This document shows, in pieces, positions 2,243 through 58,503 of a stretch of DNA of 64,000 bases; the stretch's first letter is position 1; the number at the start of each line of letters is the position of its first letter. Location: assembly GCA_965198945.1 (NCBI GenBank), contig CBDAQI010000001.1, positions 224,001 to 288,000 on the forward strand, read 5' to 3'. This DNA is from Thermodesulfobacteriota bacterium (GTDB lineage: Bacteria > Desulfobacterota_D > UBA1144 > Nemesobacterales > Mycalebacteriaceae). A program made the position numbers and the translations under genes. Below the pieces are notes generated by a model. It saw nothing but the letters and a program-made list of their open reading frames with translations, had not been told where the DNA came from and ran no database searches.

Positions 2243-3631
2243 TTGTCAAAAAAAACACTTTGGTCGGGAAGGTTTTCAAAAAATCCTCATCGTCTTGCGG
2301 GACAATTCTCCGCATCGGTGGATTTTGACAGAAAGCTCGCCTTTGAAGACATTGAGGGAAGTTCCGCGCATTTAAAAATGCTTGCCGCGCGCAAGATAAT
2401 TTCCAAAAAGAATGCGGGTCTGATTTTGAAAGCCCTGTCTGAAATCAAAACGGAGATAAAAAAAGGCGTTTTCCCTTTCAGGGACGAATACGAAGATATT
2501 CATTTGAACATAGAGAAGCGCATTATTGAAAAAATAGGTCCGGTCGGCGGGATGATTCATACGGCGCGCAGCAGGAACGACCAGATAGTTCTTGATGAAC
2601 GTCTCTATCTCAGAAAGCAGACGGCGCTGATACTTGAGGGGATCTCCTCGGTGGCTGATAAAACGGTCGCTCTTGCGGAGAAGGATTCCGGCGCGATAAT
2701 GCCGTTTTACACTCATCTTCAAAGAGCTCAGCCGGTGCTTGTTTCCCACCATCTGCTTGCTTATTTTGAGATGTTCAAACGCGACCGTGAAAGATTTTTA
2801 GATTGTCTGAAAAGGATAAATGTAAATCCTCTCGGCGTCTGTGCGGGCGCGGGAACCTCTTTTCCCATAGACAGAAAAATGACTTCGGAACTGCTCGGCT
2901 TCCCGTCCGTTACCGCGAACAGCATAGACACCGTGTCTGACAGAGATTTTCTTGCGGAGTTCATATTCTGCTGCGCCGCCCTGATGGGGCATCTTGGCAG
3001 GTTTGCGGAAGAGTTGGTGATATGGTCTTCCCGCGAGTTTGATTTTGTTGATCTCGGAGATGATTTTACGACGGGCTCAAGCATAATGCCTCAGAAAAGA
3101 AACCCTGACATTGCCGAACTTGTGCGCGCAAAGGGGGCGCGGGTCAACGGAAATCTGGTTTCTCTGCTTACCCTCATCAAAGGACTTCCGCTTTCCTACA
3201 ACCGCGACATGCAGGAAGACAAGGAGCCCCTGTTTGACACCTCGGAAACGGTTGCCGGTTCTCTTTCCGTTTTTGCCGCGATGCTTGCCGGGTGCAAGCT
3301 CAAAACCGAAAATATGGAAAAAAGTCTCAAAGACGGATACATAACCGCGACCGACCTTGCGGACTATCTTACGCGCCGCGGAATGCCTTTCAGACAGGCG
3401 CATGAAATCTCAGGGCGAATTGTTTCTCATGCGGAGAAAAAAGACAAAGATATAACCGAACTGACAATTCCGGAATTCAAAAAATTCTCTCCAATTATTG
3501 AAAAGGATATTTATGAGACGCTTTCAATTGAAGGCTCCGTAAAAAGCAGAAATTCCCAGGGCGGCACCTCCCACAATCAAGTGAGAAAAATGCTCCGCTC
3601 CGCACGGCGTGAAATATCAGGATGGGGCTGA
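2243..3631 (+). CDS. argH: Argininosuccinate lyase
   Basis: LWSGRF, HTARSRNDQ, GSSIMPQKRNPD, LSYNRDMQEDKE; TTG start after GGAGG. Confidence 0.98.
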   Translation: MSKKTLWSGRFSKNPHRLAGQFSASVDFDRKLAFEDIEGSSAHLKMLAARKIISKKNAGLILKALSEIKTEIKKGVFPFRDEYEDIHLNIEKRIIEKIGPVGGMIHTARSRNDQIVLDERLYLRKQTALILEGISSVADKTVALAEKDSGAIMPFYTHLQRAQPVLVSHHLLAYFEMFKRDRERFLDCLKRINVNPLGVCAGAGTSFPIDRKMTSELLGFPSVTANSIDTVSDRDFLAEFIFCCAALMGHLGRFAEELVIWSSREFDFVDLGDDFTTGSSIMPQKRNPDIAELVRAKGARVNGNLVSLLTLIKGLPLSYNRDMQEDKEPLFDTSETVAGSLSVFAAMLAGCKLKTENMEKSLKDGYITATDLADYLTRRGMPFRQAHEISGRIVSHAEKKDKDITELTIPEFKKFSPIIEKDIYETLSIEGSVKSRNSQGGTSHNQVRKMLRSARREISGWG

Positions 3632-3976
3632 TTCAGGTTCCACGGGTATTCTCGGAGAATCAGACCAGAGGCCTTCCAGGTTGTAAAAATCGTGCTTCTG
3701 ATTTTGAAAAATATGCACTATCACATCTTCAGTACCTATGAGGATCCAGCTTTTTTTTGACATTCCTTCCCTGTCCAGGACGCGTATTTTCTTTTCTTTA
3801 AGGGTTTTTTGAATGTGGTCGGAAACGGCCTTCACCGCTCTTTCGGAAGAGGTTTTGCATATTACAAAAAAGTCCGCAATGCCGCTTGTGTTTCTCACAT
3901 CTATTATGACGACATCGGTCGCTTTTTTGTCAATTGCGCAGCGCGCAAGAAGCAGGGCTTGCTGTTTTGAAGTTAT
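3617..3976 (-). CDS. rsfS: Ribosome silencing factor RsfS (probable ATA start)
   Basis: DKKATDVVIIDV, ADFFVIC, WILI..DVIVHIF, FYNLEGLW; follows nadD; homologous N-terminus extends upstream of ORF-track GTG 3898. Confidence 0.9.
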   Translation of the reverse strand: MTSKQQALLLARCAIDKKATDVVIIDVRNTSGIADFFVICKTSSERAVKAVSDHIQKTLKEKKIRVLDREGMSKKSWILIGTEDVIVHIFQNQKHDFYNLEGLWSDSPRIPVEPESAPS

Positions 3977-45584: not shown

Positions 45585-46787
45585 TCATTTGATTTTATTC
45601 AGGCGAAACAGCCCCTCCCAAACACCCCCGTCACTTGTGAAATAAAGCAGCCCATCTTCACCGAACAAAACTCCGACCGGCCTTAGCAGTCTTTGTCCCG
45701 ATCTGTTTTGAAGCCCTCCAACAAGAGTTCTTACACGACCGGTCGCTTCCCCGTCCGGATTAAAATCAACGACCTCAATTAAGGGCGGGCGGCGGGTTGA
45801 CTTCGCTCCCATAAAACCGCCGTCGGGTTTAGTGCCCCAGGAGCCGTGCAGAGCCGCAACCGCACTGCCTTCCGGCACCGGCACATTAGCCCCCCGTGAA
45901 ACAAAAGTTATGCCCATTGGAGCGCTGCGTGCCGGGAAAACCGCTACCGGCGCCCTTGCATCAGTTCTCGGTGGAGGGGTTGATATGCATGAATCTCTCA
46001 CCATTTTGGAACCGTCAAACCAAAACCACGGCATTCCGTGGAAAGAGCTTTCATCAAGCCGGCTGAAGTATTCCGGAGGATGCTCATAACCAAGATGGTC
46101 CGGGCCGTTGTTCGTCGCGTAGAGAACTTTTGTCTCCGGGTGCCAGTCAAAACCGACCGGATTGCGCAAGCCGGATGCGTAAGTTTCCCACTCTCCGGTT
46201 TTTTCATTGAGCCGCAAAACCCCTCCTCTGCGGTCTTTGAAGGAATATGCTTTTCCCAGATACTCATTGCTGCAATTGCCGCTTATGCCGATGCTAACAT
46301 ATAGACCGCCGTCAGGGGCAAACGCCACAGTGCGTGTAAAATGCCCGTAACCGGAAGGCAGGTTTGCAACTTTACTGAAATCCTTTTTTATAAGCCTCCC
46401 ATCACGCCAATCGCTGTGGGACTTATACACTCCGTCAGTTTTCGCAATCCACAATTCACCGCCTCGAACCGCCACACCGTGCGGACTGCCGCCCACTTGT
46501 GCCAGCACTTCCGGGTTGTTGTATGGAGGCTTGGCCCGGTAAACCTTCCCTGAGTTTGTGCCTATAATGAAATCTTTTCCGGAAGCCGCGATCATGCGTG
46601 AATCCGGAATTTCAGCGAGAAATTCAAGTTCATAACCCTTGGGAACAGAGACTTCCCATAATGATCCGCCTATAAGAAATTTCTGCTCCGAGTAGTCAAG
46701 TTTTTCTTCGGCGTTACAGGACAAAACTCCCGCCGCGGACAGCAGGAAGAAAATACAGGCAAAAGTGAACAGTTTTCGCAGTTGCAT
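45585..46787 (-). CDS. PQQ-dependent sugar/sorbosone dehydrogenase family beta-propeller
   Basis: Signal peptide; GHFTR, GLRNPVG, NGPD.LG..PPE, LHGSW, RPVGV. Confidence 0.85.
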   Translation of the reverse strand: MQLRKLFTFACIFFLLSAAGVLSCNAEEKLDYSEQKFLIGGSLWEVSVPKGYELEFLAEIPDSRMIAASGKDFIIGTNSGKVYRAKPPYNNPEVLAQVGGSPHGVAVRGGELWIAKTDGVYKSHSDWRDGRLIKKDFSKVANLPSGYGHFTRTVAFAPDGGLYVSIGISGNCSNEYLGKAYSFKDRRGGVLRLNEKTGEWETYASGLRNPVGFDWHPETKVLYATNNGPDHLGYEHPPEYFSRLDESSFHGMPWFWFDGSKMVRDSCISTPPPRTDARAPVAVFPARSAPMGITFVSRGANVPVPEGSAVAALHGSWGTKPDGGFMGAKSTRRPPLIEVVDFNPDGEATGRVRTLVGGLQNRSGQRLLRPVGVLFGEDGLLYFTSDGGVWEGLFRLNKIK

Positions 46788-47023
46788 TGAAAAAGCCTTC
46801 TCGCCCAATCGGCTGTCTTATCATAATACAGGGAATAAGGAGTCAAAGTAATAAGCAGAGTTTCAACATCAACCGCCATGCCGTTTTCTTGTTTGCCTCA
46901 TATAAACAGCTGTTTTCATTACATTTTTTGGCAATCAATCAAATAAGAATAATTCATTGTGCTTATTGGATAACGCACTATTTGCACATTATAAGATACT
47001 GCTATCATTGTATAAACTTACTT

Positions 47024-47063
47024 AAAGTCAAATAAGAACAATCAATTGTCCTTATTTGACTTT
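47024..47063. promoter_or_regulatory. 40-bp near-perfect palindrome over the -35 box of the ATPase gene
   Basis: AAAGTCAAATAAG-A-ACAAT-CA-ATTGT-C-CTTATTTGACTTT. Confidence 0.6.
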
Positions 47064-47093
47064 TTGAGTTTTTCCACTAATGTAAAAGCAGCC

Positions 47094-48566
47094 ATGTTGG
47101 GAATTTCAACTGAAGAAAGAAATCAGCGTCTTAAAACGGACAATCCCTGGTGGGATGATCCGAGCGATGTGAGATGGAAAGACGCCCCTGAAAGAGTTTA
47201 CTTTGCACCATTCTATGAATTGGCAACGAAAACGGAAGTCAACCGCGCGGTTGTTCTGATGGGGCCCCGGAGAGTTGGCAAGACGGTCATGGTTCATCAG
47301 GCAGTCGCCGGACTTATAAAAGAAAGCGTCAATCCGAAAAAAATTCTTTACATACCCCTGGACAACCCGCTGTATGCCGGACTGTCTCTTGAAAAAATTC
47401 TTCTTGCTTTTCTTGAGCTCAATAAAAATCCGAAAAGCGAAATCGCCTATCTTTTCTTTGATGAGATTCAATACTTAAAAGACTGGGAACTTCATCTGAA
47501 GTCCCTTGTTGATTCCTATCCGCAACACCGCTTTATCGCCACCGGCTCGGCCGCGGCGGCATTAAAACTTAAAAGCAACGAGTCCGGTGCAGGAAGGTTT
47601 ACCGATTTTATTCTGCCTCCCATGACATTTCATGAATACATAAAATTTATAGACGTGGAAGAAGAACTTTTTGATAAAAATGCCGGGTTTTTGTTTGGTA
47701 TGGGAAAAGCAATAAACAACATTAAAGATATCAATACGCATTTCATAAAATACCTCAACTTTGGCGGCTACCCTGAAGCAGTGTTTTCAGAAGAAATCAA
47801 AAAAGACCCGGGCCGTTTTATAAAAAACGATATCATAGACAAGGTTCTTCTAAGAGACTTACCCAGCCTTTACGGGATAAGCGACATTCCCGAACTCAAC
47901 CGCCTGTTTACAGCTCTCGCTCACAGCACGGGGCGGGAAGTCAATTTGTCTGCTCTTTCACAAGGTTCCAATGTGGCAAAAGGCACAATATCAAGATATT
48001 TGGAATATCTTGAAGCGGCTTTTCTTATAAAACGTGTCCGCAGGGTGGATAAAAACATTAAAAGGTTCAAAAGAGACCACACTTTCAAAGTTTATCTCAC
48101 AAACCCCTCAATGTATGCGGCGCTTTTCGGCACTGTAAGCGAAGACAATAGTGAAGTGATTGGAATGTTGGTGGAAACGGCGGTTTTCAGCCACTTTTTT
48201 CACTTGATGGGAAAATCCGAACCCCTTTATTATGCTCGCTGGAACAATGGAGAGGTGGACTTGGTAGCAATGGATGAAACCGGAATAAAAGCAGCGTTTG
48301 CAATTGAAATCAAATGGTCTGACAAGCCATATCAAAATCTTTCAGAAATTAGTGGGCTGCTTGATTTCACAAAAAAACACGGAATCGGAGGAGATGCGGG
48401 CACGGCTATATGTCTCAGTAAAAGCAAATACGCCCCTAAGCCATATGAAAGCGGAACTGTCATTTTCATTCCCGTAAGTTTTGTCTGCCTTGAACTTGGA
48501 CAAATGCTAAACAGCAAGGAATTCAGGGAAGCTTTTGTAAGTGAGGAAAAAAAACTTCCGGATTAG
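47094..48566 (+). CDS. AAA_14/DUF4143 family ATP-binding protein
   Basis: NPWW, GPRRVGKT, FFDEIQ, TGS, ESGAGR, GGYPE, C-terminal EVD...EIK (PD-(D/E)xK-like). Confidence 0.9.
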   Translation: MLGISTEERNQRLKTDNPWWDDPSDVRWKDAPERVYFAPFYELATKTEVNRAVVLMGPRRVGKTVMVHQAVAGLIKESVNPKKILYIPLDNPLYAGLSLEKILLAFLELNKNPKSEIAYLFFDEIQYLKDWELHLKSLVDSYPQHRFIATGSAAAALKLKSNESGAGRFTDFILPPMTFHEYIKFIDVEEELFDKNAGFLFGMGKAINNIKDINTHFIKYLNFGGYPEAVFSEEIKKDPGRFIKNDIIDKVLLRDLPSLYGISDIPELNRLFTALAHSTGREVNLSALSQGSNVAKGTISRYLEYLEAAFLIKRVRRVDKNIKRFKRDHTFKVYLTNPSMYAALFGTVSEDNSEVIGMLVETAVFSHFFHLMGKSEPLYYARWNNGEVDLVAMDETGIKAAFAIEIKWSDKPYQNLSEISGLLDFTKKHGIGGDAGTAICLSKSKYAPKPYESGTVIFIPVSFVCLELGQMLNSKEFREAFVSEEKKLPD

Positions 48567-48592
48567 ATTTTACAACCTCCATGAATGCAATA

Positions 48593-48606
48593 TATGCTAT
48601 AGCATA
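48593..48606. promoter_or_regulatory. 14-bp perfect palindrome upstream of HTH-hsdM
   Basis: TATGCTATAGCATA. Confidence 0.45.
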
Positions 48607-48629
48607 ATAGAACTTCAGAGTTTTTTATA

Positions 48630-50463
48630 ATGACCGAAAAAGAAGACCTGTCAGAAATTATCAAAAGCGTCAGAAACACTCTGAACCTTTCCCAAGAAAA
48701 ACTCGCCTCAAAACTCGGGGTTTCATTCTCAACACTGAACGGATGGGAAAACGGCCGCCGTGTTCCCCGGAAAAAACATCTGGACAAAATTATGGAGATG
48801 GCGGAAAAAGCCGCAAATTCCGAGCCCGCAGCGCCCCGGCGCAGACTCAACACCAAACAGGATGTTTTAAGCATAAAAATGATGGAGCAGATGCTATGGG
48901 ATGCCGCCTGTTCCATAAGGGGCGAGAAAGACGCTCCGAAATTCAAGGACTACCTGCTTCCCCTAATCTTTTTGAAACGTCTTTCAGATGTTTTTGACGA
49001 TGAAATGGAGAGACTCGCAGATGAACACGGAAGTATGGAAAGGGCTCAAGACATAGTTGGCAGGGACAAAGAAATCATTCGTTTCTATCTGCCGCCGGAG
49101 ACCAGATGGGATGTTTTGAGCGGAAGAACAAGTTTCAAGTGGGCAAAAGGCGCCGAACCTAAAACACTTAGAGAGCAAATAACCTCAACTATGCGAACAG
49201 TCGCCGAGGCCAATCCTTCTCTCAAGGGAGTTATAGACCTTGTTGACTATGGAAAAACAAGCGGGGGAGAACGCGAGATAAGCGACGCGGCTCTAAAGGA
49301 AGTAATAGAGAAATTTTCAAAACCTCAGTATCGGCTTGGAATCCATGATGTGGAGCCGGATTTTCTCGGCCGCTGCTACGAATATCTTTTGAGAAAATTA
49401 GCGGAAAATTCGGGACAGAGCGCCGGAGAGTTTTTCACCCCAACGGAAGTGGGCTGGCTCATGGCGCGGATTATGAAACCGACACAGGGCGAGACGGTTT
49501 ATGAATACGCCTGCGGTTCGGCGGGTCTGCTGATAAAGTGCGAACTCGCGCTTCTTGAACGGTATCCCGATGTCAAAAAGGGGGCTCCCTTGAAACTGTT
49601 CGGACAGGAACTTGGAACTGATAACTATGCGATGGCGCAAATGAACGCAATTATCCACGATATGGAATGCAAAATTGAGCGCGGAAACTCAATGAAAAAC
49701 CCCAAGTTTCTGAACGAAACCGGAGGATTGCAGAATTTTGACATAGTTGTCGCCAACCCGATGTGGAATCAGCCGTTTGATGTTTCCGGATATGTGGAAT
49801 CAGCCGTTTGATGTTTCCGGATATGAGGAAGACAAGTTTGACCGTTTTGAGTCACAGGGAGGCGTAACAACAAGCAAAGCAGACTGGGCATGGCTTCAGC
49901 ACACGGCAAAATCCCTGAACACCAAAGGAAGGGCGGCGGTCGTGATAGACACGGGAGCGGTAACACGCGGAAGCGGAGCATCGGGAGAAGACAAAGAGAA
50001 GAGAATCCGCAAATGGTTTGTTGAAAAAGACTTGATTGAAGGCGTAATTTTTCTTCCCGAAAACCTTTTCTACAACACCACGGCGGCGGGAATAATAATT
50101 CTCCTGAACAAAAATAAAAACTCTGCGAGAAAGGGGAAAGTTGTTTTAATTAACGCAAGCGGGGAATTCAAAAAAGGCAGGCCGAAAAACTATCTGAGCG
50201 ATGAAGGTTCAAGAAGGATTGTTGATTCTTTCTTCAACGGAAAAGATGAGGAGCGTTTCTCAAAAGTCATAACAGTAAAAGAAGCGGCGGAAAATGACTA
50301 CAACCTGTCTCCTTCGCGTTACATTGACATAAGCGAGAAAGAAATTCTCCGCCCGATACCGGAAATATGGGCGGAGCTGAAAGCGCTTGAGAAAGAGGCG
50401 AAAAAGACGGACAGAGAGGTTGAAAAGATTTTCAGGGATATGGCAGCGGAGTATGAAACTTGA
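48630..50463 (+). pseudogene. hsdM: Type I R-M methyltransferase HsdM with N-terminal XRE HTH, frameshifted by a 31-bp duplication
   Basis: LSQEKLA..LGVS..T..WENG; LWDAAC.IRG; GEFFTP; YACGSAG; NPMW; second frame WLQH, LFYNT, YNLSPSRY. Confidence 0.9.
49761..49822. repeat. Perfect 31-bp tandem duplication
   Basis: ATGTGGAATCAGCCGTTTGATGTTTCCGGAT x2. Confidence 0.97.
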
Positions 50464-50502
50464 CATTTTCAGTTGACAAGCCTAAAATTCTTTCATTATT
50501 TG

Positions 50503-50570
50503 CCCCCCCCTCGGAGCAGCCCGGGAACAACCTTTTGGGATTCTTGGGACTCTGAGTGGGGTTATTTTTT
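50503..50570 (+). ncRNA. Candidate small structured RNA/attenuator upstream of NYN gene
   Basis: CCCC/GGGG, CTCGGAG/CTCTGAG, CCCGGGAA/TTCTTGGG, CC-TTTT-GG, then TTATTTTTT; TTGACA at 50473. Confidence 0.6.
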
Positions 50571-50591
50571 GTCCTCTTTGGAGATTCTCGG

Positions 50592-51212
50592 ATGATTGAG
50601 CCTTCAATCAAAAGAGCGTCTTTCTTTATTGACGGACAGAACCTTTTTCCCGGCGTAAAAGAAGCGTTCGGCTACCCATACCCAAACTACAACATCAAAA
50701 AACTGTCGGAGAAAATCTGTGAGATTCACAAATGGGAAATAAAGGACATATCTTTTTACACCGGAATTCCGGATGAAAAAATCAGCCCGGACTGGCATTA
50801 TTTTTGGACCACAAAAATGTCAGTAATGGGCAACATGGGAATCAAAACCTTCTCCAGAAAACTACAATACTCCAATGTAAGCAATGACCGTTCAGATCCG
50901 ATTCTGGCGGGAAGGGAAAAAGGAATTGACATACGAATTGCTCTTGACGTTACCCGGACGGTTTTTGAAGATGGTTGCGATGTTGCAATTATCTTCAGTC
51001 AGGACCAGGATTTATCCGAAGTTGCAAAAGAAGTAAGACACATTTCAAAACGCGAAAAACGCTGGATTAAAATTGCAAGCGCATTCCCGGTGAGTCCGAC
51101 AAGTAAAAACAATCGTGGAATCAACAACACGGATTGGATAAAAATTGAAAGAAAAATTTATGATGACTGTATTGACACAAGAGACTACAGACCAAAAAAA
51201 GGAACAAAATAA
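50592..51212 (+). CDS. NYN domain (LabA/DUF88, PIN-like) nuclease
   Basis: FIDGQNL, FYTG, REKGIDIRIALD, FSQDQDL. Confidence 0.9.
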   Translation: MIEPSIKRASFFIDGQNLFPGVKEAFGYPYPNYNIKKLSEKICEIHKWEIKDISFYTGIPDEKISPDWHYFWTTKMSVMGNMGIKTFSRKLQYSNVSNDRSDPILAGREKGIDIRIALDVTRTVFEDGCDVAIIFSQDQDLSEVAKEVRHISKREKRWIKIASAFPVSPTSKNNRGINNTDWIKIERKIYDDCIDTRDYRPKKGTK

Positions 51213-52783
51213 TGTCTTTACAGGAAATAAACAAAAGCATTGGAGGATTTTTTGAAGAATGGAAATCCTTACAGCCTCTCAAGCCGGAGTATAAGGAGCG
51301 GCTTAACAAAAAAATCCGGCTGGAGTGGAACTACAACTCAAATCATATTGAAGGTAACACGCTGACTTACGGAGAGACCGCCGCTTTAATACTTGAGGGA
51401 AAAGAGGAGGGAATTCATCCAAAACGCGATTATATGGAAATGAAAGCGCACGATTTGGCTATAGAAAAAGTCAGGGAATTTGCGGCGGACAAAGACAGAA
51501 AACTTACGGAATCCGACATTCGGGGTTTGAACAAACTTATTCTCAAAGAGCCGTTTTGGGCGGAAGCCATAACCGCTGAAGGACAGAAGACCCAGAAAGA
51601 GATTATTCCCGGAATATACAAAACACAGCCAAATCATGTGAGGATGGAAACGGGGAAAATTTTCAAATTTGCCGAACCGCATGATGTTCCCGCAAAAATG
51701 AAAGAACTGGTGGAATGGTTTGATAGGGAAATGCAAGATCCGCCCCTTGCGGTTTCCTCTTTTCTTACGGAGCTACACCACCGTTTCATTCTCATTCATC
51801 CGTTTGATGACGGGAACGGACGCATAGTCCGTTTGTGGATGAACTATGTTTTATTGAGACTCGGCTACCCGCCCCTGGTGATAAAAAGCGAGGATAAAAA
51901 AAATTACTTTGCAGCTTTACAAAAAGCGGATGGCGGAGATATGGATATCCTTGCCGTTTATCTTGGAAATGTTTTGATTGATTGGCTGGATATTGGGATT
52001 AAAGCGGCGAAGGGAGAAAATATAAAGGATGTCACAGACGTCGACAAAGAATGGTCTATTTTTGTTGCCAGTGAAAAAAATAAAGGATTGAAAAATACAG
52101 GTGATTTCATATCTTCATCAAACGTGGAACAAATATGCGAAGAATATCTGACACCGTTTCTTAAAAATTTCGAGAAAGAATTTAGGCAGTTCTATGAAGT
52201 TTTTGCGGAAAGAAAGATTCATGTTCTGTCAAGCCCTTGTTATGAAGAAGAAAAAGAGCAAATCAACCCTCAATCATTTCGAAAAATTCATAACAATATG
52301 TTTTTCCCTTCCATATCAAACTCATTACTGAATTCTTTGTTTAATGCACCTCTTGATACTTTTATAATTGTTTCGGAAGACAGGAAAGAGACAGGTTGGG
52401 AAAAAACATTTAAAAATTTCATGGTTGGGACAAATTGGAGCAGAAAAAAAGAAAGGATTATTAGATTGAAATTACTTTGCAATGGATACATGGGAGAATG
52501 TCATAAGGTTTTTGATATCGATTCTGCTTTATTCATAGAAACCAGCGATTTTGAATATAGAACATGGATAGAAATATGCAACAAAAGAGCAATCAAAACC
52601 ATAAAAAAACAACAGATAAAAAGACAAAGATATATTCTCATTCATGGTCAAAAGAAGAAATGGACAAATTTATATTCAAAGCAAAAGAAAATCTTAATGA
52701 AATTATTAAGGAATCTATTAAGAACAAAGGGGAAAAATAAGAAAGGCAAAAATGAAACTGCAAACTTACAAATTATCCGATGA
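51212..52783 (+). CDS. Fic family protein (C-terminus probably frameshifted)
   Basis: SNHIEGNTL inhibitory motif, HPFDDGNGRIVR. Confidence 0.88.
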   Translation: MSLQEINKSIGGFFEEWKSLQPLKPEYKERLNKKIRLEWNYNSNHIEGNTLTYGETAALILEGKEEGIHPKRDYMEMKAHDLAIEKVREFAADKDRKLTESDIRGLNKLILKEPFWAEAITAEGQKTQKEIIPGIYKTQPNHVRMETGKIFKFAEPHDVPAKMKELVEWFDREMQDPPLAVSSFLTELHHRFILIHPFDDGNGRIVRLWMNYVLLRLGYPPLVIKSEDKKNYFAALQKADGGDMDILAVYLGNVLIDWLDIGIKAAKGENIKDVTDVDKEWSIFVASEKNKGLKNTGDFISSSNVEQICEEYLTPFLKNFEKEFRQFYEVFAERKIHVLSSPCYEEEKEQINPQSFRKIHNNMFFPSISNSLLNSLFNAPLDTFIIVSEDRKETGWEKTFKNFMVGTNWSRKKERIIRLKLLCNGYMGECHKVFDIDSALFIETSDFEYRTWIEICNKRAIKTIKKQQIKRQRYILIHGQKKKWTNLYSKQKKILMKLLRNLLRTKGKNKKGKNETANLQIIR

Positions 52784-53992
52784 AAAAGTATTTTCTTTTG
52801 CCAATGGTCTTTGGAAGGGGAAAAAGGCGCCTTTTACAAAAGTTTCAGTAATCAGAAACACAAACTTTAGAAACAACGGAAAGATTGACTACTCAAACAT
52901 TGCCAATTTTGATGTTGAAACCAAGCAATATGAGAAAAGAAAACTTGAATACGGAGACATAATAATTGAGCGTTCTGGAGTAGGCCTTCACAACCCGTTG
53001 GTAGAGTTTGTTTCTTCAACAGTGAAGGGAAAGAAGATTTCAGCTTCAGTAATTTTACAACTAGGCTTCGCATTGTTGACTCATGCCTCTTTAATTCTCT
53101 TTTTGTTCATTACTTCCTACTAAACACATACAACAAAGGAGAAACCAATAAACTCCAAAACAAAACAACAGGCATAAGAAATCTGGACTTTAATAGATAC
53201 AAAGAAATAGAAATTCCTTCTCCTCCACTCTCCGAACAAAAAAGAATCGCCAAAACTCTCTCAACAATTCAGAATGTCATTGAAACACAAGACAAAATCA
53301 TCGCCAATGTTCGGGAACTCAAAAAAACCACAATGGAAAAGGTTTTTACAAAAGGATTGAACGGTGGAAAGACAAAGCAAACGGAAATTGGGGAAATGCC
53401 GGATGGGTGGAAACTATACACAATAGACAATCTATTTGAAATGAAACAAGGCAAATCTCTCTCCGCCAAAAAACAAACAGGAAAATATCTGAAACCTTTC
53501 TTGCGAACTTCCAATGTTTTGTGGGGAAAGTTATATCTTTCAAAAGTAGATGAAATGGACATACTTCCCGAAGAAACAAAATTGCTTGAGTTGAAAGAAA
53601 ATGACCTGCTTGTATGCGAAGGTGGAGAAATAGGACGCACAGCAATATGGAAATGTGAAATGGGAGAATGCTATTATCAAAACCATATCCATCGTCTGCG
53701 GTCTAAAAAAGACAGAATTTCCCAAGTTTTCTATATGTTTTGGTTGCAATTCGCCATTCAAATGAATAGCATTTATGGGACTTTTGGAAACCGAACAACT
53801 ATTCCAAATTTATCAGGAAAGACCTTATCAAAGTTTGTTTTGCCGCACCCAATTTTCAACGAACAAGAACGAATCGCCGAAATTTTACAATTCATTGACA
53901 GAAAAGTTGAACAACACCGAGACAAGAAAAACTCATTGCAGGATTTATTCAAAACTATGCTGAATGAATTAATGAAAAAAGGCTTGAAATAA
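52752..53992 (+). pseudogene. hsdS: Type I R-M specificity subunit HsdS, 1-nt frameshift near 52985
   Basis: ERSG.G then other frame SQPVGRV...IPSPPLSEQKRIA...TEIGEMPDGW...EQERIA..L. Confidence 0.88.
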
Positions 53993-54354
53993 TGCTGTAT
54001 AAGACTGTTAAAAATGTAGATATGAATTTTTCAGAAGTTACATATATTGGTTTTGACGAACAGAATACTACTTACAGTTTTAAGGTTTTCTGGGAAAGTT
54101 TGCAAAACGCCCGGATACTTCCTAATCCGGTCAGCGCCTATTCGGTTGATGGGCAAGCTAAAGTTAAAGATTTGCCCGATGAGATAAAGGAAAAAATTTA
54201 TTCTGCTGTCAAAGCAAATGTTTTTTCAGAAAAAGATGTTTGGGAGCGCAGATATTTTGCCTTCCACATTATAATAACAATTTGGCAAAAAAAGATTGGT
54301 CTGATAACTCTTTTTGTTGTGGTTTTAAACACCATAATAGGACTCTGCGGATAA
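53992..54354 (+). CDS. Hypothetical protein with C-terminal hydrophobic segment
   Basis: 120-aa ORF overlapping hsdS stop (TAATG). Confidence 0.55.
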   Translation: MLYKTVKNVDMNFSEVTYIGFDEQNTTYSFKVFWESLQNARILPNPVSAYSVDGQAKVKDLPDEIKEKIYSAVKANVFSEKDVWERRYFAFHIIITIWQKKIGLITLFVVVLNTIIGLCG

Positions 54355-54392
54355 ATATCTTCAATGAAAACGTAATTCTATAAATGTAACCC

Positions 54393-57320
54393 ATGCCCTC
54401 CCTAACATCCGAAAGAGAAAGCGTTCAGGAACCGCTGATTAAATACGCCTCTGAAATCGGCTGGAAAATCGTCTCCCGCGAGGAAGCCGAGAGTCTTCGC
54501 GGCGGAACTCAAGGACTTCTTTTTTCCTCCGTCTTCAAAGAAAAACTAATTACCCTCAATCCGGGACTCATTGATTCCGAAAACGCGCGGGTAGTCATTC
54601 AGTCAATGGAATCCGTCCGTTATGACATCAGGGGAAATAAAGACGCGCTCAGTTGGATGCGCGGGCAGAAAAGCATTTACAGCGAGAAAGAAAAACGGGA
54701 ACTCACCATCTCCGTCATTGATTATCAAAATCCCGATAACAACACCTTTCAAGTTACCGATGAATGGGAAACCGCCGCGCAAAAACCGCATCGCGCCGAT
54801 GTGATGTTTCTCATTAACGGCATTCCGGTTGCAATCGTGGAAACAAAAAGCGCCAGAAAGAAAGAACCGATTTGGGATGGACTGACTCAAATAAGACAGT
54901 ATCACAAAGACACCCCCGCAATGCTCGCCCTGCCTCAAGTGTTTGATATAACGGATGTGCTCGGATTCCATTACGGGGCCACATGGAATACCGAAGTAAA
55001 ATCAGTTTTCAACTGGAAAGATGAACAGGACGGCAACTTTGAAAAGAAAGTAAAGGCATTTTTTGACAGGGAAAGATTTTTGAAACTGCTTGAGAGATGG
55101 ATTCTGTTTTTTCAAAAAGACGATGAACTCAGAAAGACCGTCCTCAGACAGCACCAGACACGCGCCGTGGAAAAAATAGAAAACAGATGTGCGGACATAA
55201 AGAAAACGCGCGGTCTGATATGGCACACGCAAGGGTCGGGCAAGACCTTTACGATGATAAAAGCCGCCGAACTTGTGTTTAAGAGCAAAACCGCGCTCGG
55301 AGACCCGACCGTTATTTTGATGATAGACAGAAATGAACTTCAGGGGCAGCTGGCGGGCTGGCTTGAGTCTCTTTCTTACGAAGGCGGAATTACCGGAGTA
55401 AATATAAGACCGGCGAAAACAAAAAATGATTTGCGGGAAATCCTGAAATCTGACTTCAGAGGCCTTGCGGTTTCAATGATTCACAAATTTGATGACATGC
55501 CCGCGAACATAAACAAGAGAGAAAACATATTTGTTTTTATTGACGAAGCGCGCCGCAGCGTTGAGGGAGACTTCGGAAACTACCTGACCGGAGCGCTTCC
55601 GAACGCCACTTTTATCGGGTTCACCGGAACACCGGTGGACAAAACCCAGTATGGAAAAGGAACTTTCAAGGTTTTCGGCAAAGACGATGAAAAAGGGTAT
55701 CTGGACAAATACTCCATAATGGAATCCATCAAGGACGGCACAACAGTTGAACTGAAATACAAACTTGCTCCCGTGAAAATGAGGGTTCCCGAAGAAACTC
55801 TGGAAAGAGAGTTTCTGCAAATGGCGGAAACAGAAAGGCTTAACGATATGGAAAAATTGAACAGAGTTCTTGACAGAGCCGTAACTCTGAAAAATTTTCT
55901 GAAATCGGAGGAAAGGATAACTCTTGTGGCAAAGTATGCCGCCGAACACTTCAAGGAAAACGTTCTGCCGCTGGGATACAAAGCGTTTTTTGTGGCTGTT
56001 GACCGCGAGGCGTGCGCCCTTTACAAAAGAGAGTTTGACAGACTTCTTCCGCCCGAATCGGTAAAAGCGGTTTATACACAATCACAGCATGACACGGAAA
56101 CTCTACCGCTTGTGGCGGAATACCAGTTGTCCGGAGACGAGGAAAAATCACTGCGCAAAGAGTTTCAAAAACCCGGCAGAGACCCGAAACTGTTTGTCGT
56201 GACAGACAAACTGCTGACCGGTTTTGACGCCCCGATTCTGTATTGCATGTATCTTGACAAACCCATGCGCGACCATGTTCTGCTTCAGTCAATAGCGCGA
56301 GTTAACAGACCGTATTCATTTGAAGAAAAAGAAAAACCGCACGGTTTGATTGTGGACTTCGTGGGCATTTTGAACAGCATGAAAAAAGCGCTCGCTTTTG
56401 ATTCAAAAGATGTGAGCGGAGTCATAGAAGATATTGATATTTTGTTTGAAAGTTTCGGAGAAAAAATGAAAGAGGCGCGGGGCTGGCTCAAAATCACAGA
56501 TGGGTTGCGGGAAGACAAGGCGATTGAAAAAATCATTGAACACTTCTCGGACAAAGGCAGAAGAGACAAGTTCATTGAGTTTTTCAGGGAGACCCAGTCT
56601 CTCTACGAAATTCTCTCACCCGACGGCAAACTGGCGCAGTTCCTTGAAGGCTATAAAAATCTTTGCGGGGTGTATGAAATAGTGATGAAAGAATTTGAAA
56701 GAAACGAGCTGCCGGTTGAATATAGACAGTTTCAGAAAAAGACCGAAGAACTTATAAGGGACAAGGTCGGCGCTTATACGACTGAAGAAAAAGAGACTGA
56801 AACCGCCGTCAGTGAAAAAACCCTTGAAGAAATTACAAAAAGCGGAAAAAGCGACGAGGTCAAAGTTCACAACCTGCTGAAATTGATTGAAAAACTTAAT
56901 GCCGAACTGGAAAAAATTTTAGGACTGTCACCAATGTCTGAAAAGGCGCGGAAGTTAAGAGAAAAATATGAGAAAAACCTTGCCGGAGCGAGAGAAACGG
57001 CGGAGGAACTAAACCGGCTTTTAAGAGAAGGCCTTGAAACCAAAGCAAGATCTCAAGAAAGCGGCAAATCACCGGTTCAGTTTGTTTTCTGTCTCACACT
57101 TGAACGGGAGGGGGACACAAAAGCCGAAAAAACCGCCGCAGAGGTGGAAAAGCTTTTCAATCAGTTTCCAAACTATATTGATAACGGTCATCAGAAAAGA
57201 TCTCTGAAATCAGCCCTCTACAAAGTAGTCGGCGCCGCCGTCGGAAAAGAAAATGAAAGCGATGTAATATGGGAGATAATGAGCCTTTATGAGCGTGTCA
57301 AAAAAGAAATTCAGGGATGA
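54393..57320 (+). CDS. hsdR: Type I R-M restriction subunit HsdR (motif II DEAR variant)
   Basis: RAD..INGIP..ETK, HTQGSGKT, DEARRS, FTGTP, LTGFDAP, Q.IARVNR. Confidence 0.93.
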   Translation: MPSLTSERESVQEPLIKYASEIGWKIVSREEAESLRGGTQGLLFSSVFKEKLITLNPGLIDSENARVVIQSMESVRYDIRGNKDALSWMRGQKSIYSEKEKRELTISVIDYQNPDNNTFQVTDEWETAAQKPHRADVMFLINGIPVAIVETKSARKKEPIWDGLTQIRQYHKDTPAMLALPQVFDITDVLGFHYGATWNTEVKSVFNWKDEQDGNFEKKVKAFFDRERFLKLLERWILFFQKDDELRKTVLRQHQTRAVEKIENRCADIKKTRGLIWHTQGSGKTFTMIKAAELVFKSKTALGDPTVILMIDRNELQGQLAGWLESLSYEGGITGVNIRPAKTKNDLREILKSDFRGLAVSMIHKFDDMPANINKRENIFVFIDEARRSVEGDFGNYLTGALPNATFIGFTGTPVDKTQYGKGTFKVFGKDDEKGYLDKYSIMESIKDGTTVELKYKLAPVKMRVPEETLEREFLQMAETERLNDMEKLNRVLDRAVTLKNFLKSEERITLVAKYAAEHFKENVLPLGYKAFFVAVDREACALYKREFDRLLPPESVKAVYTQSQHDTETLPLVAEYQLSGDEEKSLRKEFQKPGRDPKLFVVTDKLLTGFDAPILYCMYLDKPMRDHVLLQSIARVNRPYSFEEKEKPHGLIVDFVGILNSMKKALAFDSKDVSGVIEDIDILFESFGEKMKEARGWLKITDGLREDKAIEKIIEHFSDKGRRDKFIEFFRETQSLYEILSPDGKLAQFLEGYKNLCGVYEIVMKEFERNELPVEYRQFQKKTEELIRDKVGAYTTEEKETETAVSEKTLEEITKSGKSDEVKVHNLLKLIEKLNAELEKILGLSPMSEKARKLREKYEKNLAGARETAEELNRLLREGLETKARSQESGKSPVQFVFCLTLEREGDTKAEKTAAEVEKLFNQFPNYIDNGHQKRSLKSALYKVVGAAVGKENESDVIWEIMSLYERVKKEIQG

Positions 57321-57600
57321 AGTCGCGTTTTGGAGCGCAAAAATCAACGTTTGTCCGAAACGGATAACCGTGAGAGATATGACGCGCAAATGGGGCTCCT
57401 GCTCAACAGAAGGACGGGTCAGTTTCAACTCGGAACTTCTGAACAAACCTAAATGGTTCAGACATTTCGTCATAGCGCACGAACTTCTGCATCTGAAAAT
57501 CCCCAATCACGGAAAACTGTTCAAACAGATTTTGAGCGCTCATATTCCGCAATGGCGCGAAATAAAGGACTCCCAAACATTGCGCCGCAGGGAGCGGTGA
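57289..57600 (+). CDS. YgjP/M48-like metallopeptidase (DUF45), short
   Basis: KWGSCS, HELLH...NH; typical hsdR neighbour. Confidence 0.85.
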   Translation: MSVSKKKFRDEVAFWSAKINVCPKRITVRDMTRKWGSCSTEGRVSFNSELLNKPKWFRHFVIAHELLHLKIPNHGKLFKQILSAHIPQWREIKDSQTLRRRER

Positions 57601-57645
57601 TTATACTATCCGGTGTGGTATTGAACCACGGAGGAAAATAAGAAT

Positions 57646-58503
57646 ATGAACACTTTGAAAAGCGTTGTTTTACTCGCCGTTCTGTCGGCAATTCTTGTCT
57701 GGGCGGGCGGAACTTTCGCGGGACAGCAGGGAGCGGTTATCGCGCTTGTTTTCGCGGGGATTATGAACTTCGCAAGTTTCTGGTGGAGCGACAAAATCGT
57801 TCTGAAAATGTATCGCGCTCAGGAAGTTGACGAAAGTTCCGCACCCGAACTCTACGCCGATGTGCGCGAACTCTCTCAGAGCGCGGGTCTTCCGATGCCG
57901 AAGGTTTACATAGTTCCCGAACAGTCGCCAAACGCATTTGCAACCGGAAGAAGCCCCTCTCATTCGGCCGTAGCCGTAACTCAAGGGATAGTAAAACTTC
58001 TCAACAGGTATGAACTCAAAGGCGTTCTCGCACATGAGCTCGCACATATAAAAAACCGTGACATACTTATCGGCTCAGTCGCCGCCACGATAGCCGCCGC
58101 AATAAGCTACATAGCCTGGATGGCTCAGTTTGCGGCAATCTTCGGCGGCGGAGGCGGAAGAGACGGCAGAAACAACGTCTTCGTCCTTCTCGCAATGGCG
58201 ATAGTGGCACCGCTTGCGGCCACCATAGTTCGCCTCGCCATATCACGCACAAGGGAGTTCGGAGCGGACAGAGAGGGAGCGGCAATATGCTCAAACCCGA
58301 TGTATCTTGCGGACGCACTGCGAAAAATGGACAACTTCGCAAAAAGGATTCCACTCAATGTAAGCGAACAGGCGGCGGAAAGCACATCCCATATGATGAT
58401 TGTAAGCCCCATGATAGGCGGCAGTTTCGCAAAACTGTTCAGCACACACCCGCCCACCGAAGAGCGCATAGCCCGCCTTGAAGCGATGACCTCGTTCGGA
58501 TGA
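57646..58503 (+). CDS. htpX: Zinc metalloprotease HtpX
   Basis: PNAFATGR, HELAH..NRD, SRTREF.AD, STHPP. Confidence 0.96.
   Translation: MNTLKSVVLLAVLSAILVWAGGTFAGQQGAVIALVFAGIMNFASFWWSDKIVLKMYRAQEVDESSAPELYADVRELSQSAGLPMPKVYIVPEQSPNAFATGRSPSHSAVAVTQGIVKLLNRYELKGVLAHELAHIKNRDILIGSVAATIAAAISYIAWMAQFAAIFGGGGGRDGRNNVFVLLAMAIVAPLAATIVRLAISRTREFGADREGAAICSNPMYLADALRKMDNFAKRIPLNVSEQAAESTSHMMIVSPMIGGSFAKLFSTHPPTEERIARLEAMTSFG

Follow-up and report, generated by a model that had tools for sequence, protein, structure and literature searches.

In type III toxin-antitoxin (TA) systems (ToxIN, AbiQ/antiQ, CptIN, and TenpIN), a structured RNA and a terminator are followed by an endoribonuclease gene. Autoregulatory 5′ leaders are present on the ribonuclease genes rne and rnc of E. 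coli, and a eukaryotic NYN/PIN-like RNase, Regnase-1, reportedly cleaves its own mRNA at a stem-loop. For the NYN proteins VPA0982 and MARF1 we know of no leader RNA. Here, we describe a leader RNA element in front of a gene for an NYN (LabA-like) nuclease in a 64,000-nt stretch of DNA (the window) from a Thermodesulfobacteriota bacterium (GenBank assembly GCA_965198945.1, contig CBDAQI010000001.1, positions 224,001 to 288,000, forward strand). As judged from sequence comparison, promoter, leader hairpin, and NYN gene are a portable cassette, which lies here between hsdM and a Fic-domain gene in a type I restriction-modification (R-M) operon (Table 1). On the same basis, the hairpin is an RNA element absent from the Rfam 15 catalogue. 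A cmscan search for a known family, proposed in a preliminary description of this DNA, gave nothing relevant at E ≤ 10 for positions 50300-50800, and nothing at E ≤ 1 for 12 related loci. No description of an NYN leader RNA was found in the literature outside subscription journals.

The predicted order of promoter, structured RNA, intrinsic terminator, and endoribonuclease gene is common to the NYN cassette and the type III TA systems. Both are found among phage-defense genes, and in both the design would give much short RNA and little nuclease mRNA. They differ in the RNA, which is an array of 34-36-nt direct repeats in type III systems and a single hairpin, itself the putative terminator, in the NYN cassette. 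They also differ in the enzyme, since type III toxins have the ToxN (Kid/MazF-like) fold whereas the cassette nuclease has an NYN/PIN-like fold. The rne, rnc, and Regnase-1 cases resemble the NYN leader in having a conserved stem-loop in the untranslated leader of an RNase gene, and by this analogy the encoded enzyme may recognize the NYN leader through its conserved unpaired bases. Unlike what is proposed below for the NYN leader, those of rne and rnc are not terminators located a few nucleotides past the transcription start. A further likeness is to nested defense genes and prophage morons, which are small self-promoted accessory genes, as is NYN in the arrangements hsdM-NYN-hsdS, mod-NYN-res, and terL-portal. 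The two differ in the location of the terminator, which comes after the gene in a moron; the NYN cassette has a terminator-shaped hairpin ahead of the gene.

Conservation of the leader hairpin in front of NYN genes

The hairpin was compared across loci carrying relatives of the NYN gene. A first set comprised 17 loci from species genomes and three from relatives of the window's genome. In 19 loci the 5′ end of NYN is intact, and 18 of them, as judged by eye, have the same element, in the order TTGAC(A) promoter, short leader, 10-bp stem starting with CCCC, small internal loop, GCC-tetraloop-GGC cap, GGGG, UUAUUUUUU, Shine-Dalgarno sequence, and start codon. A covariance model (R1) was built from a MAFFT alignment of 17 copies and applied to 93 loci outside the model (80 metagenome contigs and 13 viral contigs), which were found via the NYN protein and are related to one another. 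A match on the NYN strand, ending just upstream of the gene, was detected in 86 of these loci, which represent many phyla, at E ≤ 3e-4 in 84 of them. The preliminary description had named conserved structure upstream of homologs as a check in advance, and such structure is present, with covariation. Three of the seven misses have almost no upstream DNA, and the two most distant relatives (24-26% identity) are among the remaining four.

Whole genomes (332 in total) were also sampled with R1, starting from the motif rather than from the protein. Each of five genomes holding NYN has exactly one match, located ahead of NYN. Eleven matches (E ≤ 0.01) were found in 61 relatives of the window's genome; five adjoin an intact NYN gene, three adjoin NYN fragments or pseudogenes, and three show no NYN similarity nearby. 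Three more matches came from 120 genomes of the same phylum (two adjoining intact NYN, one ahead of an ABC permease gene), and seven came from 151 genomes of another phylum (four beside intact NYN, two beside remnants, one beside nothing recognizable). The INPHARED phages contain no NYN relative at E ≤ 1e-10. PLSDB yielded a single relative; it is carried by a Methylobacterium replicon of 2.8 Mb, and the hairpin match there is weak.

The predicted pairing is conserved. In an alignment of 87 matches, which was fitted to R1 and contains loci related to each other, 99.2% of the cells are paired, compared to 35-55% when the partner column is slid. Both sides change in nine of the 12 pairs, and the observed values were attained in none of 500 shuffles. 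The plain MAFFT alignment of 17 copies has compensatory changes at eight of the 12 pairs. The middle of the basal stem covaries freely, with U-G as the commonest pair at one position. Such G-U pairs form only on the NYN-sense strand, and their frequency therefore points to an RNA transcribed in the direction of NYN.

A number of positions are invariant or nearly so. These include an A seven bases before the stem (85/85) and, within the unpaired 5′ leader (A-W-Y-U-R-C-U), a U and a C. In the basal stem, they include the four C-G pairs at the foot as well as a G-C and an A-U pair at the top. The 3-nt/1-nt internal loop, with a conserved C on its 3′ side, and the apex GCC-GNAA-GGC are likewise nearly invariant. 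The U tract (alignment columns 102-110) is composed of U save for a conserved A in third place (76/87), giving a UUAU start. The unpaired nucleotides (5′ A-U-U-U-G-C-U, internal loop, GNAA, and UUAU) are thus conserved to the same degree as the paired ones.

The element is also fixed in position. Of 101 related loci, 82 have a TTGAC box no more than 80 nt ahead of the hairpin, compared to two of 101 control windows. The box falls at five adjacent positions in 48 of these 82 loci, from which transcription would start with the invariant A or just ahead of it. A promoter with at least nine of 12 consensus matches was found upstream in 81 of 104 loci, and in 41 of them the -10 box ends 13-17 nt before the stem. 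Some 7-11 nt separate the predicted transcript start from the stem, so no competing structure can form upstream. In relatives, stem end and start codon are mostly 20-30 nt apart, too close to accommodate another promoter; therefore every NYN mRNA should start with the hairpin or read through it.

In the window, the promoter matches the consensus at 11 of 12 positions and is the top-scoring sigma-70-like site within 46500-58000. The hsdM stop codon (50461-50463) falls within its -35 box. The preliminary description had started the promoter at the second TTGACA, which is indeed present, though the upstream copy is the better -35 box. The A at position 50498 corresponds to the invariant A of the family, for which all 85 sequences having a letter in that column agree. 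The basal stem of the hairpin pairs 50506-50516 with 50550-50561 (CCCC, a bulged U, and CUCGGAG opposite CUCUGAG..GGGG), and the apical part consists of 8-bp and 2-bp stems. The stem and UUAUUUUUU end 21 nt ahead of the NYN start codon.

Folding of 50495-50575 gave -32.2 kcal/mol (z = -2.51), which was equaled or bettered by four of 200 shuffles. The opposite strand folds more weakly (-24.7 kcal/mol, z = -0.77; 44 of 200 shuffles equal or better). The hairpin with three G-U pairs that work on the + strand, as described earlier, was thus recovered. Taken singly, it is weak evidence, with a modest excess over chance; it is beyond chance because it recurs upstream of NYN homologs. R1 has a single match in the window (50487-50573, 46.9 bits, E = 1.8e-7), and the hairpin is single-copy in the 1.39-Mb genome. 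The typical form of the element scores 60-70 bits. The copies of the window and its genus differ from this form in the cap, which is swapped for a longer stem; base, 5′ leader, and U tract are kept. The extended apical arm (50521-50537) resembles the NYN coding stretch for DGQNLFPG (50631-50653), both directly (12/15) and as an inverted repeat (76% over 17 nt). The resemblance may be due to chance or may mark the origin of the apical insertion.

A leader-peptide reading of the open reading frame (ORF) at 50473-50595 was considered and is unsupported, as the ORF starts upstream of the predicted transcript start. By eye, no pairing of the conserved 5′ AUUUGCU with downstream mRNA was seen. Inspection by eye only gave no convincing likeness of the hairpin to K-turn, tRNA-like, or rRNA-helix structures.

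Table 1. Features of the NYN cassette and its host operon (positions in the window).
Feature	Position	Strand	Remarks
AAA_14/DUF4143 ATPase (PADLOC PDC-S01), intact	47046..48566		Upstream of HTH-hsdM
hsdM with N-terminal HTH, frameshifted	48630..50463	+	Split by 31-nt tandem duplication 49761-49830
Promoter, sigma-70-type	50460..50488	+	-35 TTGACA 50460-50465, 17-nt spacer, -10 TAAAAT 50483-50488
Second TTGACA	50473..50478	+	Without good -10 at 16-18 nt; TTATTT 17 nt downstream
Single-stranded 5′ leader AUUAUUUGCCC	50495..50505	+	Predicted transcript start ~50495; promoter geometry and alignment columns
Leader hairpin, 56 nt	50506..50561	+	Fold, covariance model R1 match, covariation
U tract UUAUUUUUU	50562..50570	+	Abuts stem; with hairpin, shape of an intrinsic terminator
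Shine-Dalgarno-like GGAGA	50580..50584	+	7 nt ahead of ATG at 50592
NYN (LabA-like) nuclease gene, 206 aa, intact	50592..51212	+	Pfam NYN, family alignment, structure model
Fic-domain gene, 523 aa, intact	51212..52783	+	Start overlaps NYN stop (TAATG)
hsdS, one frameshift near 52990	52752..53992	+	Two reading frames
120-aa ORF between hsdS and hsdR	53992..54354		No Pfam or PADLOC match
hsdR, intact	54393..57320	+	

The NYN protein and the settings of its cassette

The NYN protein matches the Pfam NYN family (PF01936) over residues 10-153 with 36.9 bits (cut-off 24.2; E = 6.3e-9), and no other Pfam domain was found in the ORF. The intact gene after the U tract and its acidic motifs had been pointed out before, and the family alignment bears this out. 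In 25 sequences, the motifs DGQN (residues 14-17), EKGID (109-113), and SQDQD (136-140) coincide with invariant or nearly invariant columns. D14, E109, D113, and D138 are invariant and D140 nearly so. The AlphaFold2 model (pLDDT 89.8, pTM 0.87) has as its top Foldseek matches in the PDB the LabA-like protein VPA0982 (2qip; E = 2.5e-7) and the NYN domain of MARF1 (5yaa and 6fdl; E = 6e-4 to 9e-4), with a probability of 1.00. The fold is common to these proteins, which are 9-15% identical in sequence to the window NYN, and the acidic motifs are conserved in the window NYN family. From sequence and model, the gene looks functional and the nuclease active, with RNA as the putative substrate. One protein search gave more than 3,600 relatives of similar length, 55-60% identical, in many phyla. 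To our knowledge, none of them has a known role.

PADLOC gave no match of the NYN protein to the ToxN, AbiQ, CptN, and TenpN models. With Pfam, this places the nuclease outside the known type III toxin families, as the preliminary description had stated. The only PADLOC match is a weak one to the HEC-09 profile, which comes without a cut-off (E = 1.2e-10, 39.4 bits); it aligns residues 7-177 with positions 2-167 of the 203 in the profile. HEC-09 is an NYN candidate embedded in Hma systems, whereas the window NYN is embedded in a type I R-M operon. In the part of the HEC-09 account available to us, the protein is described and a leader RNA is not mentioned (Payne et al., bioRxiv 10.1101/2024.01.29.577857). 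The same part states that HEC-09, a distant NYN candidate and the only one for which a published test was found, gave no protection against the coliphages tested (bioRxiv 10.1101/2024.01.29.577857).

The cassette is found behind hsdM and followed by hsdS or Fic in five of the 20 genome loci and in six metagenome loci. In locus L034 (129-5727), it lies between an N6_N4 DNA methylase gene (mod) and a ResIII helicase-nuclease gene (res), a type III-like R-M pair. Genes for HicA, HipA, BrnT, and MazF also adjoin the cassette. Its housekeeping settings include sodA-rpoB (L018) and a purC neighbor (L020). In the phage contigs L115, L117/L118, L120, and L121 (~2800-3650), hairpin and NYN gene are located between the genes for the terminase large subunit (terL) and the portal protein, and in L119 the portal gene follows. 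The terL-portal junction is a classic slot for morons or homing endonucleases. No sigma-70-like promoter with at least nine of 12 matches was found for the phage-embedded copies. Among the metagenome and viral loci with a called upstream ORF, this ORF is on the other strand in 20 of 66. The hairpin is thus not merely a terminator of hsdM, an option that the preliminary description had kept open, as it accompanies NYN into loci without R-M genes and behind divergent ORFs.

Gain and loss of the cassette can be followed among congeners. In G005 (L154, G005:C3, 1490-1505), the hsdM stop is followed by 5 nt and the Fic start codon; the site holds no NYN and no R1 match even with filters off. This empty site marks the cassette borders, and it follows that promoter, hairpin, and NYN (~750 bp, here 50460-51212) are gained and lost as one unit. 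In G004 (L138, G004:C51; 1841-2104 and 2155-4498), hsdM is followed by three tandem hairpin units and two tandem Fic genes, and there is no NYN in the locus. The first unit is without a U tract, and promoters precede the first and the third. The Fic protein encoded after this array is 49% identical to the window Fic. In G006 (L027, 5770-5956), two tandem hairpin units stand behind one promoter before NYN, the first with a disrupted cap and a degenerate U tract. A crude pattern search found tandem units in one of 106 loci (G004), and the G006 case was added by eye. The NYN-Fic pair is also present in G001 and G006, and Fic without NYN in G004 and G005.

Proposed attenuation and alternative explanations

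With moderate confidence, we propose that the hairpin is a promoter-proximal attenuator, probably recognized by the NYN RNase. The predicted transcribed strand has, between a promoter and the NYN gene, a GC-rich hairpin followed by a U tract, as is characteristic of attenuators. Transcription would begin about 7-11 nt ahead of the stem, and the GC-rich stem with UUAUUUUUU would act as an intrinsic terminator close to the promoter. Most transcripts, whether initiated at the cassette's own promoter or entering from hsdM or a phage late operon, would end as an RNA of ~65-75 nt. Read-through alone would yield NYN mRNA and, in the window, also Fic and hsdS mRNA. The level of a potentially harmful RNase would be kept low, whatever the landing site, as would suit a nuclease gene that enters foreign operons. 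A protein is likely to read the hairpin, because its unpaired nucleotides are conserved like the paired ones. Most economically, this would be the NYN RNase itself, which would exert feedback on its own synthesis. Two features exceed those of a plain terminator: unpaired bases are conserved between loci whose proteins are only 50-60% identical, and a near-consensus -35 box is combined with a terminator.

Several points weigh against this proposal. For low expression alone, a near-consensus -35 box followed by a terminator is superfluous, and the combination is easier to understand if the short RNA is functional. If the terminator between hsdM and hsdS were fully efficient, it would exert polarity on the R-M operon, yet the operons in which the cassette is embedded in L016, L017, L027, and L031 appear intact; termination would therefore be partial or regulated. 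A classical antiterminator has no space upstream of the stem. In G004, G018, G057, G064, and G143, the hairpin is retained although the NYN gene has decayed or is missing, so at least part of its use should be independent of NYN. The family cap GCC-GNAA-GGC is absent from the window hairpin, which has a lineage-specific extended stem instead. Finally, the alignment of matches (A3) is model-fitted, and its loci are kin rather than independent.

The hairpin could alternatively be a type III-like RNA antitoxin. An abundant terminated hairpin RNA would neutralize NYN in trans, and a stop in transcription (e.g., upon phage infection) would lead to decay of the RNA and release of the nuclease. We regard this as doubtful. 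The layout with a strong promoter ahead of a structured RNA, a terminator, and an RNase gene, conserved in 86 of 93 loci, would be wasteful unless the short RNA matters, and the conserved unpaired bases are consistent with such a function. Tandem units on one transcript, with an upstream unit lacking the U tract (two units before NYN in G006, three in G004), are reminiscent of antitoxin arrays, and the orphan hairpins beside decayed NYN genes resemble orphan antitoxins. The defense settings of the cassette (type I and type III-like R-M operons, TA neighbors) point in the same direction. However, the window has no repeat array: at 50200-50800, TRF and a repeat search gave nothing beyond a row of 2.1 copies of 9 nt within the hairpin and some short matches in two copies. 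Tandem units are rare (G004 among 106 loci, plus G006), and the G004 array heads Fic genes in a locus from which NYN is absent. The NYN protein is unrelated to the ToxN, AbiQ, CptN, and TenpN models and has a LabA-like/MARF1 fold. The phage-embedded copies are without a promoter of at least nine of 12 matches. In addition, the distant candidate HEC-09 gave no defense against the coliphages tested, according to the accessible part of the source (bioRxiv 10.1101/2024.01.29.577857).

The preliminary description had likened the locus to a type III module and had proposed an RNA that neutralizes or guides the nuclease in an addictive unit. The layout of promoter, RNA, terminator, and RNase gene that it drew on is conserved across loci. 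The further step to an antitoxin or guide RNA and to addiction was not borne out, given the missing repeat array, a nuclease that is not ToxN- or AbiQ-like, hairpins that persist without NYN, and phage copies with no recognizable promoter of their own.

A variant of the trans-acting explanation can be put forward only tentatively. The terminated ~65-75-nt leader may be a free-standing single-hairpin RNA that is bound by NYN as a pseudo-substrate, in which case the cassette would represent a new minimal class of RNA-protein toxin-antitoxin or abortive-infection systems. If this were true, the module would have spread horizontally over many phyla, R-M operons, and phages, and an infection that alters termination or RNA turnover would trigger read-through.

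It is also unlikely that the hairpin is a plain insulating terminator, or an mRNA 5′ structure, with no protein partner, and that its conservation reflects common descent together with selection for a fast-folding terminator. A GC-rich base, loops of the GNRA or UUCG type, and a U tract are commonplace among terminators. Where NYN is gone, the hairpin is kept and may serve neighboring genes (L141 and L151), and its apical part has been freely replaced in the window lineage. An insulator, however, would be expected upstream of the cassette promoter, whereas the hairpin lies downstream of it. Conservation across proteins with only 50-60% identity extends, moreover, to the 5′ single-stranded nucleotides, to how large and asymmetric the internal loop is, and to the A in the U tract.

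We consider it highly improbable that the hairpin works at the DNA level, as a recombination or insertion site that mobilizes the cassette in the manner of IS200/IS605 ends or attC sites. The precise gain or loss between hsdM and Fic in congeners, the use of classic insertion points such as terL-portal, and the tandem hairpins of G004 would fit such a role. The frequent G-U pairs, formed only on the NYN-sense strand, and the fixed position relative to promoter and start codon argue for an RNA instead. Each cassette has one hairpin, with no counterpart at its 3′ end (a single R1 match in the window), no transposase or integrase accompanies the cassette in the examined loci, and no target duplication was seen at the G005/window junctions. 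A chance hairpin, or a terminator serving hsdM only, would suit the distance of 43 nt from the hsdM stop and the single-sequence z of only -2.5, but is scarcely credible, since the same structure precedes NYN in loci without hsdM or with a divergent upstream gene, and is missing after hsdM in G005, where NYN is missing too.

The host operon and the significance of the leader RNA

The start codon of the Fic gene overlaps the NYN stop, and the two genes are therefore expected on the same transcript in the window lineage. PADLOC assigns the Fic protein to PDC-S04/SoFic and the ATPase to PDC-S01. The frame of hsdM is shifted by a perfect 31-nt tandem duplication (2.3 copies) located right after the NPMWNQPF motif. 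This duplication could be a reversible on/off switch of the methylase or an assembly artifact. The second part of hsdS aligns to residues 111-394 of HsdS from the sister genome G001. In the same operon of G001, the scanned ORFs (ATPase, hsdM, Fic, and hsdS) give full-length domain matches, and the hsdM and hsdS frameshifts of the window could be due to sequencing or assembly error. The R-M neighbors of NYN had been described as decayed. This holds in part: hsdM and hsdS are frameshifted, whereas the hsdR, Fic, and AAA_14 ATPase genes are undamaged. With the rest of the operon intact, two frameshifts are thin evidence for selective retention of NYN amid decaying neighbors.

An AAA_14/DUF4143 ATPase gene precedes the HTH-fused hsdM also in G001 and G006 (loci L031 and L027), and the ATPase may belong to the same defense island as the cassette. 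In L016 (7927-10090), a locus with the order hsdM-NYN-hsdS, genes for a patatin-like phospholipase and a SMODS/CD-NTase (a CBASS-like pair) follow hsdS.

The leader RNA sets the borders of the cassette, predicts its transcript, and offers a candidate RNA partner for a PIN-like nuclease. We interpret it as a cis-acting leader or attenuator RNA, possibly with a role in trans. If the element is an attenuator only, it would still be an uncatalogued and very widespread cis-regulatory motif, and the cassette a natural context-insulating expression module. If the RNA controls or neutralizes the nuclease, RNA-based toxin control would reach beyond the ToxN-type families, and this would explain how the cassette can be dropped safely into operons and phage genomes.

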